From the sequence record NC_104190.1: 64,000 nucleotides of DNA; one strand, written 5' to 3'. The notes under the pieces were generated by a model. That model had not been told where the DNA came from, made no database searches, and saw only the letters and a list, made by a program, of their open reading frames with translations. The translations under genes were made by a program, and so were the position numbers. The stretch is from Escherichia phage IME178. Shown here one piece after another: positions 8,492-14,425 of the stretch (the first letter of the stretch is position 1; every line of letters starts with the position of its first letter).

Positions 8492-9244
8492 TTACACCTT
8501 CCCCATGTCTTTAAAGATGTCATAGAATGCTTTAGACTCAACAGAACGAACGTTATCAATCAATTCGATCATTGAGAATGGGGCATTTTCGTATTTCTCA
8601 TAGACTTCCATAAGGAGTGCTAGACCTGAGTCACCTTTAATGTCTTTCTGAGCTATATCTCCGCAGATAATTAAACGGCAGTCTTGCCCTACACGAGTTA
8701 GAAGACAAATCATTGCCTCAACGGAAATATTCTGAGCTTCATCGACAATTACATAGGAGTTGTTGAAAGTTCTGCCACGAGCATGTTCGACAGCCAAAAA
8801 TTTAATTTTCTGACGTTCGACGTATCCCTTATAGGCATGATCGCCGATGGCCCATTTCATACCATCAGCTATTGGCTCCAACCAAGGCTCTAGCTTTTCT
8901 GCTAGATCACCAGGAAGCATACCAAGAGACTTACCTAGAGGTTCATTAGGACGTACGAGGATCACTTGCTCAATATCTGAGTGAATGTCTACGAGTTCCT
9001 GAGCTGCAAGAACGGACGGGATAAAGGTTTTACCAGTACCTGGCTCACCAATACCCACAGTCACTGTGTTGTTCTTGATCATATTGATATATGATTTTTG
9101 CTCGCGGTTTTTACCTACTAGGGATTTAGCAACTGGGTTAGCGTAATCATTAGAAAAATCAGCCTGAATTACGTTATTCTCATACTTGTTGCCACGCTTT
9201 CTTGAACCATTGCGGTTCTCTCTTTTTTGACGTGCTTTTCCCAT
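8492..9244 (-). CDS. phoH: PhoH-like ATPase
   Basis: Walker A GEPGTGKT, Walker B VIVDEAQN; start set at MGKARQ (RBS aggag). Confidence 0.85.
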   Translation of the reverse strand: MGKARQKRENRNGSRKRGNKYENNVIQADFSNDYANPVAKSLVGKNREQKSYINMIKNNTVTVGIGEPGTGKTFIPSVLAAQELVDIHSDIEQVILVRPNEPLGKSLGMLPGDLAEKLEPWLEPIADGMKWAIGDHAYKGYVERQKIKFLAVEHARGRTFNNSYVIVDEAQNISVEAMICLLTRVGQDCRLIICGDIAQKDIKGDSGLALLMEVYEKYENAPFSMIELIDNVRSVESKAFYDIFKDMGKV

Positions 9245-9538
9245 AAATAACACTCCTATAGTGTACTTCGCTAACAGAGGATCAACAAAAAGATCTTGTT
9301 TATCAACTTACAAATATATTATACCAATATATACAGTAAAAAGCAACTACAATTTTAAATAAGCCTATGATATTGCATTTAAATAAAAAATTTGCTTGCT
9401 TTTAACGTGAGATGTGTGATACTAGATAATCATTTTATATCGCGTGCACGAGTGCGTGATTATACAATTTTTAATAGAAATTGGCAAATAAAATTTTTTG
9501 ACTCAGATCATGTTACAGAACTTTATAGTAAAATATTG

Positions 9539-11478: not shown

Positions 11479-11510
11479 AGCCGGGTTGCTAGTCGACCTG
11501 GCTTTTATTT
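11479..11510 (+). terminator. rho-independent terminator after nrdD
   Basis: agccgggt ... acctggct stem then TTTTATTTTATTT. Confidence 0.5.
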
Positions 11511-11513
11511 TAT

Positions 11514-11542
11514 TTGCTTTCAGCCAAAAATTTATATATAAT
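11514..11542 (+). promoter_or_regulatory. T5-type early promoter with conserved leader
   Basis: TTGCTT-17-TATAAT followed by AGATTTATAAATTTGATAGGAG leader and ATG 11571. Confidence 0.55.
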
Positions 11543-11570
11543 AGATTTATAAATTTGATAGGAGAAAGCT

Positions 11571-11783
11571 ATGAGAGTTCACAAGGTAGATAAAGAACGT
11601 ATCTATTTTATTATGGATTCTGGGGCATATGGTTCCATTCTCCGTGAGGATATAACTAAATTATGTTTAGTAAATACTTGGATGGACGAAGGGAAGATTG
11701 ATCCTAGGGTGGGATTGTGCTTATCTGAGCCCTCCCTTTCTATTGCTAGTGCAGAAATTGAAATGTTTGAGGAACAAGAATGA
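11571..11783 (+). CDS. hypothetical protein
   Basis: 70-aa ORF behind promoter/RBS. Confidence 0.5.
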   Translation: MRVHKVDKERIYFIMDSGAYGSILREDITKLCLVNTWMDEGKIDPRVGLCLSEPSLSIASAEIEMFEEQE

Positions 11784-11983
11784 AAAACGTAAAACATCTT
11801 AAATATCGCTTAATTTACAATGGGCGTATGGAGACAGAAGATCTGGCCCAGTTAGCTATTAACTCTAATGAGGTTACAGTGCGTGCGCTGGCAATTGAAA
11901 AGTTGCGTGCCTCTTATGAAAATCGTGTTATGGAACTAGAGGAGAAACTTTATGGACTTCTTGAATCAGAATCTACCAGATAA
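11780..11983 (+). CDS. hypothetical protein
   Basis: 67-aa ORF, ATGA start/stop overlap with upstream gene. Confidence 0.45.
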   Translation: MKNVKHLKYRLIYNGRMETEDLAQLAINSNEVTVRALAIEKLRASYENRVMELEEKLYGLLESESTR

Positions 11984-12173
11984 GGGTTTAAACTCCGCTT
12001 TGGAAAACGCATTAATACAGTACTGGGAAACTGGTTATAAGGATGGTGTTGAATCCTGCGCTACTATGCTAGAAGTTATTGCTAATACCTTAATGGAGAA
12101 AGGCAATAAAGAATTAGCTGAGCTATTAGACAGTATTGGGCAAAACTTCAGAGAACAGGTGAAAAATGCGTAG
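11952..12173 (+). CDS. hypothetical protein
   Basis: 73-aa ORF; RBS gaggag 8 nt before ATG. Confidence 0.45.
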   Translation: MDFLNQNLPDKGLNSALENALIQYWETGYKDGVESCATMLEVIANTLMEKGNKELAELLDSIGQNFREQVKNA

Positions 12174-12981
12174 ATTAATTATTATTAGCGGTGCAGGTTT
12201 GAGTGTTGAAAGTGGTGTACGAGCTTTTCGTACTGATACTGCTAGTGGTAAAGCATTGTGGGATGATTATGATCTAGAGGAAGTATGTAATATTCATGCC
12301 TTTCGTGGTAATTTTTATCATAAAACCCATATGTTTTACAACAACCGTCGTGAAGAGCTAAAAACTGTTGAACCCAATCTTGCGCATTTGCGTATTGGTG
12401 AATGGTATAAACAATATCCAGGTCAAGTAGTAAACTTGACCACTAACGTTGATGACCTTATTGAGCGTGCTGGCGTTCCACATAGTGACATTCTACACAT
12501 TCACGGATATTTGAAAGAGGTTGTTGTAGCTGATAGCTACAATAGTAGCAATAAACGGATTATTGATGTAGGATACAGTTCTATTGATCCAGATGATTAT
12601 AAATGGGTTAAGCCTAATGTAATCTTCTTTGGAGAGCATGCCCCTGCATACGCAGAAATGTATAATGTTTTTGATGGTATTACCAGTCAAGATATGATCA
12701 TTGTGGTTGGTTGCTCTAACCAAGTAATTAACTTCTACTGGGAATTATTTCCTGTTCTTAATAGGACTGCTGCGAAATTTATGGTAGTTAACTACTATGA
12801 TAGTGCCCTAGCAGCAGAGCCAGGCTATCAAGGTATGACTCGTAGTGAGATGTACCAGTTGGAAGAACGCGGTGTCCCTTACTGGAGTAAAGGTGCGGTA
12901 GATGCTTTCAGTGACCCTGATTTTATTGCTCGTGTAGAAGCTCATTTAGAGGGTAGACCTTATGTGTCAGGAAATAAGTAA
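12166..12981 (+). CDS. Sir2-family (sirtuin-like) NAD-binding protein
   Basis: IIISGAGLSVESGVRAFR (GAGIS-ESGIP-FR signature), TTNVDDL, HG, KPNVIFFGE; no CxxC zinc-ribbon pairs; start overlaps upstream stop. Confidence 0.7.
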   Translation: MRRLIIISGAGLSVESGVRAFRTDTASGKALWDDYDLEEVCNIHAFRGNFYHKTHMFYNNRREELKTVEPNLAHLRIGEWYKQYPGQVVNLTTNVDDLIERAGVPHSDILHIHGYLKEVVVADSYNSSNKRIIDVGYSSIDPDDYKWVKPNVIFFGEHAPAYAEMYNVFDGITSQDMIIVVGCSNQVINFYWELFPVLNRTAAKFMVVNYYDSALAAEPGYQGMTRSEMYQLEERGVPYWSKGAVDAFSDPDFIARVEAHLEGRPYVSGNK

Positions 12982-13474
12982 TACTCCAATTATTTTTCTA
13001 GATATTGATGGGGTGCTCAATTCGAGCATCTCCCACCATCATGCACCTGATAATGAAAAGATTTTCTTTGGGAGTGACTGGGTTTTCAAACCGCTTCTCA
13101 AGGCTTTTCAAGATTTTATTCGTCCTTCCTCGATAATGATTGTTGGGGTATCCTCATGGTTCTCTGTCAGGAATGAGATGGAGAACGTTCAGATTATGAC
13201 CGGATTAGGTCTTATCGATCGTTTTCTTGGTACAACGGATTTTACTGGGGGTGGGCTATCTAGAGGTAATTCTGTTCTCCGTTTCGTTGAAAAGCATAAG
13301 CTCAAACATTGGTGTGTACTTGATGATGCGGGTGCTATGATGTATCAGTACCCAACGGTTATAGTCAACGGTAGGACTGGGATAAATCTTCAGGATTTAA
13401 GAGCTGTTAGCTATATGCTAGAATTTAGCCCAGATCTTGAAATGTGTAAATCCTTACAACAATTTAAGGTGTAA
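12962..13474 (+). CDS. HAD-like hydrolase (putative phosphatase)
   Basis: N-terminal IFLDIDGVLN resembles HAD motif I (DxDGV); 170 aa; overlaps Sir2-like gene by 20 nt. Confidence 0.4.
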   Translation: MCQEISNTPIIFLDIDGVLNSSISHHHAPDNEKIFFGSDWVFKPLLKAFQDFIRPSSIMIVGVSSWFSVRNEMENVQIMTGLGLIDRFLGTTDFTGGGLSRGNSVLRFVEKHKLKHWCVLDDAGAMMYQYPTVIVNGRTGINLQDLRAVSYMLEFSPDLEMCKSLQQFKV

Positions 13475-13486
13475 ATATGTTCAATA

Positions 13487-13903
13487 ATGTATTCTCTAAA
13501 GAAGCTAACCCAGTTTTGGTTAACTTTTGGCGTACTCTCCCAGCTAGTGTATAATGAGGCTATTAACTCTTTGAAAATATGGTGTGAGAATAACGAAATC
13601 TCCTTTGCTTTTAAAGATGATATTGATGAGGCCCCCTGTATTGGTTTAATTGTGCAGGTAGAGGATGGCCTTGAAGAGATTGTGGGCTGGAAAGAGTTAG
13701 ACGAAATGGGCTTAGTTTTTGCGTTAAACTATAAGCTGTTTATGCCTGCTAAGCATCGCCTCGTTGTTAACTATAAAAATAGTGAATCTCCTGGTTTTCA
13801 GGTTAATGAACGTTATGGTTGGTCTTACTTACCGGAAGAAGTAAATGAGGGGATTCAGAAACTTCGACGTTTCGGGTATATGATCCCAGGTTTAACTGCT
13901 TAA
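13487..13903 (+). CDS. hypothetical protein, paralog 1 of tandem pair
   Basis: shares PCIG, EL..MGL..ALN and PGL segments with next ORF; ATG 13477 with RBS aaggtg is in another frame, so N-terminus uncertain. Confidence 0.45.
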   Translation: MYSLKKLTQFWLTFGVLSQLVYNEAINSLKIWCENNEISFAFKDDIDEAPCIGLIVQVEDGLEEIVGWKELDEMGLVFALNYKLFMPAKHRLVVNYKNSESPGFQVNERYGWSYLPEEVNEGIQKLRRFGYMIPGLTA

Positions 13904-13912
13904 GGAGGCAGA

Positions 13913-14302
13913 ATGGAACAAGTATACTGGCGTCAGATTGACCCTAGTTTGGTGAAGCGTGCGGAGAAGCTGCTACAACGTTGGTTGGGGGTAAGACAAG
14001 CCTCCTTCACTTTTCCTGAGCAGCAAACAGATGATCCCTGTATTGGTGTTTTCCTATCCGGCTACGCCGGGGAATGGGAGATGGACTGGAATGAATTGTC
14101 CGCTATGGGTTTAATTGTTGCCCTAAACTTCTCTATATTCCATCCACGTGGTTTGGCCATATGTCGTGTGCCTGATGACGGTTGTTCGCCCCATCTTTTA
14201 CAGGTGGAAGATGATACTTGGGAGTATACTCCGGATATTCTTAAAGAAGCTAAAGAACAATTAAACCGTGTTGGGATCTATGTTCCGGGATTAAATGACT
14301 AA
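13913..14302 (+). CDS. hypothetical protein, paralog 2 of tandem pair
   Basis: 129 aa; RBS aaggagg before ATG; similar to preceding ORF. Confidence 0.5.
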   Translation: MEQVYWRQIDPSLVKRAEKLLQRWLGVRQASFTFPEQQTDDPCIGVFLSGYAGEWEMDWNELSAMGLIVALNFSIFHPRGLAICRVPDDGCSPHLLQVEDDTWEYTPDILKEAKEQLNRVGIYVPGLND

Positions 14303-14328
14303 TGATTTTTATTAGCTGAACTATGATT

Positions 14329-14354
14329 ACCGAGTCATTTTGGCTCGGTTTTAT
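14329..14354 (+). terminator. weak rho-independent terminator
   Basis: accgag-tcattttgg-ctcggt followed by TTTTA. Confidence 0.4.
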
Positions 14355-14396
14355 CCGTACTCAAGACCAATGATAGCACCATCCGGAAAATTTTAC

Positions 14397-14425
14397 TTGC
14401 AGGATGCCCAAAATCTTGATATAAT
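14397..14425 (+). promoter_or_regulatory. T5-type early promoter
   Basis: TTGCAG-17-TATAAT with AT-rich leader TTGAATTGAGAGA. Confidence 0.5.

Follow-up and report, generated by a model that had tools for sequence, protein, structure and literature searches.

What do a sirtuin and a HAD phosphatase do side by side in a virulent bacteriophage? The question is raised by the genome of Escherichia phage IME178 (NC_104190.1), in a stretch of 64,000 nucleotides (nt) that we call the window, where the gene for a Sir2-family protein runs into that for a phosphatase of the HAD superfamily (hereafter Sir2 and HAD). An earlier reading of the bare sequence, the original prediction, described the pair as a candidate NAD-linked module for host takeover or anti-defence. 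The open reading frames (ORFs), overlaps and motif strings that it quoted are all found in the DNA as described, and the virulent phage that it assumed is borne out: the window belongs to a T5-like phage, and positions 11500-14400 are about 95% identical to many Tequintavirus genomes, with 445 phage records matching. It missed that the pair is an annotated and published feature of phage T5 (T5.102 and T5.105). We tentatively favour, at somewhat less than even chances, a role of the pair in NAD-dependent RNA-end repair coupled to the clean-up of ADP-ribose (ADPR) phosphate. The two genes are the following.

12166-12981, plus strand: sirtuin of 271 amino acids (aa), orthologue of T5.102; Pfam SIR2, phrog_2162 (E 2.9e-121)
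12962-13474, plus strand: HAD_SAK_2 phosphatase of 170 aa, orthologue of T5.105; overlaps the end of the sirtuin gene by 20 nt

The sirtuin

Sir2 matches the Pfam family SIR2 (PF02146) with 88.5 bits (cutoff 24, E 6.8e-25) over profile positions 1-178 of 180. Matches of this order, here and for HAD below, are far beyond chance, and the two domain calls of the original prediction stand together with the link to NAD. The protein carries the motifs GAGLSVESGVRAFR (residues 9-22), TNVDD (93-97) and HG (113-114), and its catalytic set is complete: G9-A-G-x-S13, F21-R22, Y58-x-x-R61, N94, D96, H113-G114, F155-G-E157, G182-x-S184 and N209. In an alignment of 27 homologues, 54-85% identical to the window protein, GAGxS, F21-R22, Y58 with R61-R62, N94, D96, H113-G114, F154-F155 with E157, G182-x-S184 and N209 are invariant, the catalytic His and Asn among them, and only the Gly between F155 and E157 is substituted, in a few sequences. 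The GAGxS, N94, D96 and HG positions align with the motifs of E. coli CobB, Thr standing for the Gln of TQN. The protein had been called zinc-ribbon-less, and rightly: its only cysteines are C41 and C183, with none at residues 115-150, the part that lines up with the CobB Cys cluster. A Cys4 zinc-binding module is thus absent; a strand-rich segment is nonetheless predicted in the AlphaFold2 (AF2) model.

Where this sirtuin belongs was one of the checks that the original prediction had proposed. Its nearest solved relative by sequence is E. coli CobB (E 2.6e-17), and the AF2 model (predicted local distance difference test, pLDDT, 88.7) finds the same protein as its best Foldseek match (E ~3e-17, TM 0.71/0.84), followed by Sir2Af1 and SIRT5; the best 50 structural matches listed are all CobB, Sir2Af, Sir2Tm, SIRT5 or SIRT2. 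Against the NCBIfam CobB-type deacylase models NF040867 and NF001753 it scores 90.2 bits (cutoff 320) and 100.3 bits (cutoff 243), roughly a third of the curated cutoffs. Membership of the CobB orthologue group was rejected on these scores, which lie so far under the orthologue cutoffs that Sir2 forms a separate clade. None of the defence SIR2 profiles of PADLOC was matched at E <= 0.01, and defence NADases of the SIR2 type (ThsA, DSR1/2, SIR2-HerA, pAgo-SIR2) were rejected on this null together with the fold, which matches deacylase sirtuins. By sequence and fold, then, Sir2 sits beside the CobB/SIRT5 deacylases and away from the defence NADases. With E. coli CobB and human SIRT5 it shares the fold, the NAD+ pocket, the catalytic His, Asn and Asp, the FGE loop and Y-x-x-R; it differs from them in being only about 24% identical, in lacking the zinc cysteines, in reading TTNVD for TQNID, in falling below the NCBIfam cutoffs and in its context of RNA-end genes in phages.

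These likenesses bring up the main rival to RNA-end repair, namely that Sir2 is an ordinary NAD+-dependent lysine deacylase, acting as a second CobB that removes succinyl or acetyl groups and resets host or phage acylation early in infection, and that HAD is an unrelated phosphatase sharing an accessory slot of the nucleotide-metabolism region. The solved relatives just named (CobB, Sir2Af1, SIRT5) speak for it, as do the conservation of every deacylase catalytic residue and of the class III Y-x-x-R, and the fact that the sole NCBIfam matches are to CobB-type deacylase models. Deacylation has also been argued for zinc-less phage sirtuins by Skliros et al. 2016 (PMC5107563), whose KVP40-type proteins lack the four zinc cysteines. 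The same NCBIfam comparisons (100 against 243 bits and 90 against 320) nevertheless place Sir2 in a clade of its own, and CobB is already supplied by the host. We regard plain deacylation as rather unlikely; the gene contexts given below bear on it as well.

The class III Y-x-x-R is kept in the T5-like, rV5-like and schizoT4-like sirtuins, and is missing from one jumbo-phage relative. In SIRT5 and CobB this motif binds the anionic acyl group, so a phosphate-bearing substrate would fit the pocket of Sir2 (Y58-x-x-R61); this suggestion, and the chemical parallel between sirtuins and Tpt1 that we draw with it, are our own. Homology to Tpt1/KptA was not found: SIR2 is the sole Pfam family matched, and the fold neighbours are all sirtuins. 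The resemblance to KptA/Tpt1 is one of functional analogy, not of descent.

The HAD phosphatase

HAD scores 72.7 bits (cutoff 27.5, E 5.1e-20) against Pfam HAD_SAK_2 (PF18143), a family described there as 'HAD domain in Swiss Army Knife RNA repair proteins', which counts more than 7,000 database proteins, mostly stand-alone and 150-190 aa long. Its motif I (D14-x-D16) lies in DIDGVLN, residues 14-20, and is followed by motifs II (S64/S65), III (R101) and IV (D121-D122). Over 27 homologues, down to 28% identity, D14, D16, S64/S65, R101 and D121 never vary, and at least 90% of the sequences have D122. A PDB sequence search with HAD returned zero matches. The AlphaFold model (pLDDT 95.5) shows a Rossmannoid HAD fold, and the possibility left open by the original prediction, that a profile search would place this ORF in an unrelated fold, is thereby settled in favour of a true HAD. 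The predicted fold appears capless and C0-like, and the model resembles in this the phosphatases that act on macromolecules.

A known enzyme for comparison is T4 Pnkp, whose phosphatase domain is, like HAD, a DxDxT-type acyl-phosphatase of the HAD superfamily. T4 Pnkp removes 3'-phosphates, 2'-phosphates and 2',3'-cyclic phosphates from RNA ends, and relatives of the window HAD occur near genes for RNA ligase and polynucleotide kinase (PNK) in some phages.

The annotation of this gene calls for a correction. The second 'Sir2' annotated in records of T5-like phages is the HAD phosphatase (T5.105, L005:7589-8095). The protein cluster phrog_18062 covers only the C-terminal half of HAD, yet is labelled 'Sir2 (NAD-dependent deacetylase)', and this mislabel appears to explain why T5.105 is called 'Sir2' in RefSeq and why many GenBank records read 'Sir2 (x2)'.

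Linkage of the two genes in T5-like phages

The pair is not new: it is annotated in T5 and has been published as a computational prediction. Iyer, Burroughs, Anantharaman and Aravind 2022 (PMC9503650) described a distinct clade of phage sirtuins with three types of neighbourhood, the third combining a sirtuin with a "Swiss-army-knife" (SAK) HAD and being 'typified by Escherichia phage SP15', a Tequintavirus. They predicted that the sirtuin strips 2'-phosphates from RNA using NAD+, in the manner of KptA/Tpt1, and that its partner enzymes would either make the RNA end ready or deal with the by-product, ADPR cyclic phosphate. The window falls squarely into this third type, with a sirtuin beside a SAK-type HAD in a T5-like phage and no adjacent Macro gene; genes, genomic slot and phage genus correspond to those of T5 and SP15. 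Sir2 is 94% identical to T5.102 and HAD 98% identical to T5.105. Compared with T5, the window lacks T5.103 and T5.104, has the 20-nt overlap of Sir2 and HAD, and has an extra 73-aa ORF before Sir2. Our literature searches found no experimental study of a phage sirtuin, of DUF7415 (the family encoded next to HAD) or of HAD_SAK_2, and the HIDEN-SEQ preprint does not mention the sirtuin, HAD or DUF7415 genes.

Both genes are present in all 23 of the Tequintavirus and Epseptimavirus loci that we examined. They overlap directly in five, are separated by one small ORF in ten and by two in eight. In most T5-like phages the intervening ORFs are T5.103/T5.104 (L005:7244-7602; phrog_5116, 60-70 aa); the window, phiP4 and three IMG/VR genomes do without ORFs of this type, and their absence results in the direct overlap seen in the window. 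Shine-Dalgarno-like sequences stand before both genes there: AGGTG ending 4 nt before the ATG of Sir2 at 12166, and GAGGG at 12949-12953, 8 nt before the ATG of HAD at 12962. The translational coupling that had been proposed for the window, where the overlap is real, is not a conserved property of the pair. The small ORFs between or beside the two genes in T5, Sw2, Sealy and divergent T5-like contigs have no Pfam family, and the idea that they might be hidden genes for a cyclic-phosphate processing receiver (cREC) was rejected on this ground.

Gene order varies as well: Sir2 precedes HAD in Tequintavirus and Epseptimavirus, and the divergent T5-like contigs have HAD, a small ORF and then Sir2. 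Linkage thus outlasts rearrangement, and within T5-like phages it is strong but loose in form. Its persistence through an inversion of gene order speaks against a deacylase and a phosphatase that merely share a slot.

Altogether 1,006 of 50,697 phage records match Sir2. Two deeply diverged sirtuin alleles occur in operons that are otherwise nearly identical (the window as against Sw2, L002:3001-3843, and L043-L045). The Epseptimavirus allele is about 52% identical to that of the window and has a 26-aa insertion after residue 50; the HAD beside it is about 90% identical to the window's, and the flanking HAD and 67-aa genes reach 90-95%. The window allele is nearer to sirtuins of the Vequintavirinae type (up to ~62-66% identity), a hint that the gene has been exchanged between families of phages.

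Knock-down data are available for T5. In the CRISPRi-ART screen (PMC11879866, supplementary file 16), T5.102 and T5.105 are scored 'Not Fit', the only operon gene scored 'Fit' being T5.107, and knock-down of either gene did not significantly change the fitness of infection on laboratory E. coli. Such an outcome is in keeping with an accessory gene pair needed under certain conditions and speaks against an essential function in takeover. It bears also on the explanation that Sir2 is an ADP-ribosyltransferase of proteins or nucleic acids, or a free NADase, serving host takeover in the way of T4 Alt, ModA and ModB. Some sirtuins do ADP-ribosylate their targets (general knowledge; PMC9503650), and the T5 annotation counts the region of this gene as early. 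Against this, Sir2 keeps its catalytic His and a deacylase-type pocket, Pfam searches gave no Macro partner, and there is no likeness to the SIR2 models of defence NADases. T5-like phages, moreover, replicate with an NAD+-dependent DNA ligase, and free NADase activity would be to their own detriment. Taken with the lack of effect on laboratory E. coli, these points make such an activity very improbable.

Gene neighbourhoods in other phages and in bacteria

Outside the T5-like phages, the sirtuin keeps company with enzymes of RNA ends. In the Vequintavirus HeinrichReichert, genes for RNA ligase and cREC precede a 56%-identical sirtuin, with PNK and a phosphoesterase divergently transcribed and tRNA genes adjoining. 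In the jumbo Eneladusvirus pEa_SNUABM_44, the order is NAMPT, an Acb1-like 2H protein, Sir2, a Nudix-cREC fusion and PIN-PhoH. These confirm the other two neighbourhood types of PMC9503650. In all, neighbouring genes tie the sirtuin to RNA ligase, PNK, cREC, 2H and Nudix in four phage lineages, and a deacylase is not what such recurrent neighbours would lead one to expect, being RNA-end or ADPR enzymes with no protein-modification genes among them. In the cluster of pEa_SNUABM_44, an Erwinia jumbo phage (L027:2500-8500), the 2H protein scores best against the anti-CBASS Acb1 family, and the NAMPT gene precedes the sirtuin cluster by about 1 kb; the cluster may have a signal-degrading or NAD-salvage role.

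A cREC gene is found in T5 itself. In a tblastn search of the window and of positions 1-80 kb of T5, a lone weak cREC match led to T5.084 (L022:42745-43062, minus strand), a stand-alone cREC (E 3.4e-15) that is annotated as hypothetical in RefSeq T5 (NC_005859) and lies outside the window, near the tRNA region. Homologues occur in 492 phage records; the 269 from Salmonella and 128 from Escherichia match the counts of T5-like phages, and the 50 from Vibrio equal the number of Vibrio records with a sirtuin. The spread of cREC over organisms closely matches that of the sirtuin-bearing phages, T5-like and Vibrio schizoT4-like, and the matching counts indicate that cREC tracks Sir2. Neither a sirtuin nor a cREC could be detected in the whole genome of Serratia phage ChuuTotoro.

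HAD_SAK_2 genes lie near RNA ligase, PNK or cREC in several viral contigs (L062/63, L079/80, L083, L053 and L092). Among 60 viral contigs with HAD_SAK_2 outside T5-like phages, none had a sirtuin within 8 kb of it, and two of 59 bacterial loci have one within about 2 kb. The first, in a bacterial metagenome-assembled genome (MAG; L146:4006-6826), reads ParE toxin, SIR2-family protein, short-chain dehydrogenase (SDR), HAD_SAK_2 and a convergent cREC; its SIR2 retains a Cys cluster, and the catalytic His is replaced in the alignment (RYG for HG). The second, in a Prevotellaceae MAG (L111:2891-9611), reads bpMoxR ATPase, vWA-like protein, HAD_SAK_2, calcineurin-like phosphoesterase (Metallophos), zinc-ribbon protein, SIR2 and ADP-ribosylglycohydrolase (ARH); its SIR2 lacks a Cys cluster over the part aligned, and HLHG and FYNARR are retained. 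The row of genes has the look of a MoxR-vWA conflict system equipped with NAD/ADPR effectors.

HAD genes in NARP1 operons

A HAD_SAK_2 gene 38-40% identical to that of the window is found in the Serratia phages ChuuTotoro and Kashira and in phage ABPH49, in an operon of a hypothetical gene, HAD, Adps and Namat, which is the NARP1 operon of NAD+ reconstitution. The last 4 nt of the HAD gene are also the first of the Adps-like gene, and the Namat-like gene comes next (ChuuTotoro L004:5980-9196; ABPH49 L008:6001-9222), and this rV5-like lineage keeps HAD without Sir2. A widespread linkage of HAD with NARP1 was rejected, the arrangement being limited to these three phage records of one small lineage. 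Some NARP1 operons are known to recruit a Macro-domain phosphatase for ADPR-1''-phosphate against RES-type NAD+ degraders (preprint 10.64898/2026.01.28.702374); that preprint does not mention a HAD gene in NARP1 operons. In the three records the HAD homologue takes the position of Adpp, the Macro ADPR-1''-phosphate phosphatase of NARP1-AP (Osterman et al. 2026 preprint), and by this analogy it could be a non-homologous substitute for the Macro enzyme. The window protein differs from Adpp in its fold, which is HAD and not Macro, and in its surroundings, with no Adps or Namat in the 64-kb window or in T5 1-80 kb.

A further explanation starts from here, that the pair counters defences built on NAD or ADPR metabolites: HAD, an analogue of Adpp, would dephosphorylate an ADPR phosphate such as the ADPR-1''-phosphate of RES-type degraders, and Sir2 would act on small molecules or signals derived from NAD+. 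Besides the NARP1 operons, which include one from a phage without Sir2 (ChuuTotoro) and a precedent for recruiting such a phosphatase, the Prevotellaceae locus is in its favour, uniting HAD_SAK_2, a sirtuin and an ADP-ribosylglycohydrolase behind a conflict system, as is the NAMPT gene 5' of the jumbo-phage Sir2 cluster. Yet the NARP1 link is that of one small lineage, the NARP1 genes absent from our tblastn search leave T5-like phages no recycling of ADPR by this route, and the capless fold predicted for HAD is more typical of macromolecular substrates. To our knowledge, no sirtuin degrades an immune signal. We therefore consider this explanation improbable. The phosphatase acting on an NAD-derived nucleotide, as originally proposed, draws some support from the NARP1-coupled homologue and the Prevotellaceae locus and is one of the two partner roles foreseen in PMC9503650, within the same limits of lineage and gene content. 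Host takeover and interference with NAD-based immune signalling fared less well: nothing shows either, there is no PADLOC match, and the context elsewhere is that of RNA-end processing.

A possible NAD-dependent repair of RNA ends

The reaction sequence that we favour would begin with the oxygen of an RNA 2'-phosphate, in place of the carbonyl oxygen of acyl-lysine, attacking C1'' of NAD+, so that nicotinamide leaves. The 2''-hydroxyl of the ribose would then resolve the adduct to give an RNA 2'-hydroxyl and ADP-ribose 1'',2''-cyclic phosphate. The cREC T5.084 would open cyclic phosphates, and HAD would take off the remaining monophosphate, either from a 2' or 3' RNA end or from ADPR-1''-phosphate. 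Such a module would pay off only where the host cleaves tRNA or mRNA, its own or that of the phage, by metal-independent nucleases. What the analysis shows directly is which domains the proteins have, that their active sites are intact, which folds and genes are their neighbours, and that the laboratory host does not call for them; substrates, reaction and biological role are inferred.

We lean towards NAD-dependent RNA-end repair because both active sites are intact and invariant, because the relatives of the genes are found among RNA-end enzymes and because cREC travels with Sir2. It is favoured further because the Sir2-HAD linkage survives rearrangement and recurs in the two bacterial loci, and because HAD_SAK_2 is found near RNA ligase, PNK or cREC. 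The likeness of the modelled capless HAD to macromolecule phosphatases, the retention of Y-x-x-R, the null result of knock-down, which would be expected of a conditional function, and the published prediction all point the same way.

The proposed sequence resembles the KptA/Tpt1 pathway, in which an oxygen nucleophile attacks C1'' of NAD+ and a 1'',2''-cyclic product is opened and dephosphorylated; Sir2, cREC and HAD would be the counterparts of Tpt1, the 2H cyclic phosphodiesterase Cpd1 and the Macro phosphatase Poa1. It differs in that all three phage proteins have unrelated folds and in that T5-like phages lack an RNA ligase and kinase of their own by tblastn. If the analogy holds, Sir2 would be without precedent among sirtuins in acting on a phosphate of nucleic acid, in the way of Tpt1, and would make up with cREC and HAD_SAK_2 a complete non-homologous replacement of Tpt1-Cpd1-Poa1, and the HAD family would also be a non-Macro ADPR-phosphate phosphatase extending NARP1. 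We think this full scheme doubtful.

Several observations weigh against RNA-end repair. We know of no sirtuin with activity on an RNA phosphate; Sir2 is nearest to true lysine deacylases and keeps the residues that align with the conserved VxF-G-E substrate loop of sirtuins (V152, F154 and F155-G-E157). The tblastn search found nothing for RNA ligase, PNK, phosphoesterase, Adps or Namat in the window and T5 1-80 kb, so sealing would need a host ligase. The host ligase RtcB leaves no 2'-phosphate, and E. coli already has KptA. As to the partnership, a sirtuin allele of 52% identity can take the place of Sir2 next to a HAD that is still about 90% identical, and this want of co-divergence argues against an intimate complex. 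The T5-like Klebsiella phage Sealy has Sir2 and DUF7415 genes and no HAD at the syntenic locus, and with ChuuTotoro as the converse the two genes are separable, each being found without the other; their independent occurrence, like the missing co-divergence, is what an ordinary deacylase beside an unrelated phosphatase would give. A census of the Pfam neighbours of HAD_SAK_2 (147 in 58 non-T5 viral contigs, 149 in 59 bacterial loci) showed no dominant partner, the commonest being DUF968 in the viral contigs and Metallophos, then UvrC domains, in the bacterial ones, which indicates a family without a fixed partner. The main weaknesses are the missing RNA ligase and kinase in T5-like phages, the lack of a sirtuin precedent and the fully preserved active site of the deacylase type.

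The surrounding operon

The locus is an early accessory operon of the T5.100-T5.107 type. After nrdD and a hairpin that marks its upstream limit, genes for 70, 67, 73, 271 and 170 aa and two paralogous ORFs are tightly packed on the plus strand. Besides Sir2 and HAD it comprises the following.

11479-11503, plus strand: hairpin like an intrinsic terminator, after nrdD; 10-bp stem, then a T run
11571-11783, plus strand: 70-aa ORF, phrog_20147, first gene of the operon; its 3' end overlaps the next ORF by 4 nt
11780-11983, plus strand: 67-aa ORF, phrog_5236, orthologue of T5.101; 89-97% identity over T5-like loci
11952-12173, plus strand: 73-aa ORF, phrog_5827; overlaps the start of Sir2 by 8 nt
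13487-13903, plus strand: DUF7415 protein, orthologue of T5.106, paralogue 1; PF24187 (E 2.2e-29), phrog_2502
13913-14302, plus strand: DUF7415 protein, orthologue of T5.107, paralogue 2; PF24187 (E 7.7e-32)

In T5 a terminator is annotated at the matching place after nrdD and is followed by a promoter; the slot then reads T5.102 (Sir2), the small ORFs T5.103 and T5.104, T5.105 (HAD), T5.106/T5.107 (DUF7415) and a terminator. In both T5 and the window it lies between nrdD and the gene for the origin-binding protein. The 70-aa ORF varies in presence among T5-like loci, and the 73-aa ORF is a variable accessory gene, about 40% identical or missing in many relatives. PADLOC returned nothing for the five operon proteins tested (the 73-aa ORF, Sir2, HAD and both DUF7415 proteins).

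The two DUF7415 paralogues, about 31% identical to one another, end the operon. The pair is present in Tequintavirus, Epseptimavirus and Klebsiella phage Sealy and absent from the divergent T5-like contigs; its first gene is kept 3' of HAD in the two genera and stands 3' of Sir2 in Sealy. Some records name the family 'tail tube protein', a label that looks spurious for a region annotated as early in T5, and a DUF7415 protein found no match when its sequence was run against the PDB.

In T5-like phages a PhoH-family gene (8492-9253, minus strand, in the window) is a near neighbour of the sirtuin module, divergent from it and upstream of nrdD or of HAD. PhoH is also found by the sirtuin module at L023:5964-6737 and as a PIN-PhoH fusion in the jumbo phage (L027:7046-8500), which may be more than synteny.

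Significance

Phages with a sirtuin are common, and the activity of this clade is a prediction; the value of the locus lies in experiment, not in its discovery. A practical consequence is already at hand, since the mislabelled phrog_18062 makes many GenBank records name the HAD gene 'Sir2'. Should Sir2 prove a plain deacylase, it would mean that phages edit the acylation of host proteins. Should it prove an RNA 2'-phosphotransferase, this would be a new class of reaction for a heavily studied enzyme family, and it would explain how T5-like, rV5-like, schizoT4-like and jumbo phages cope with defences that cut RNA.

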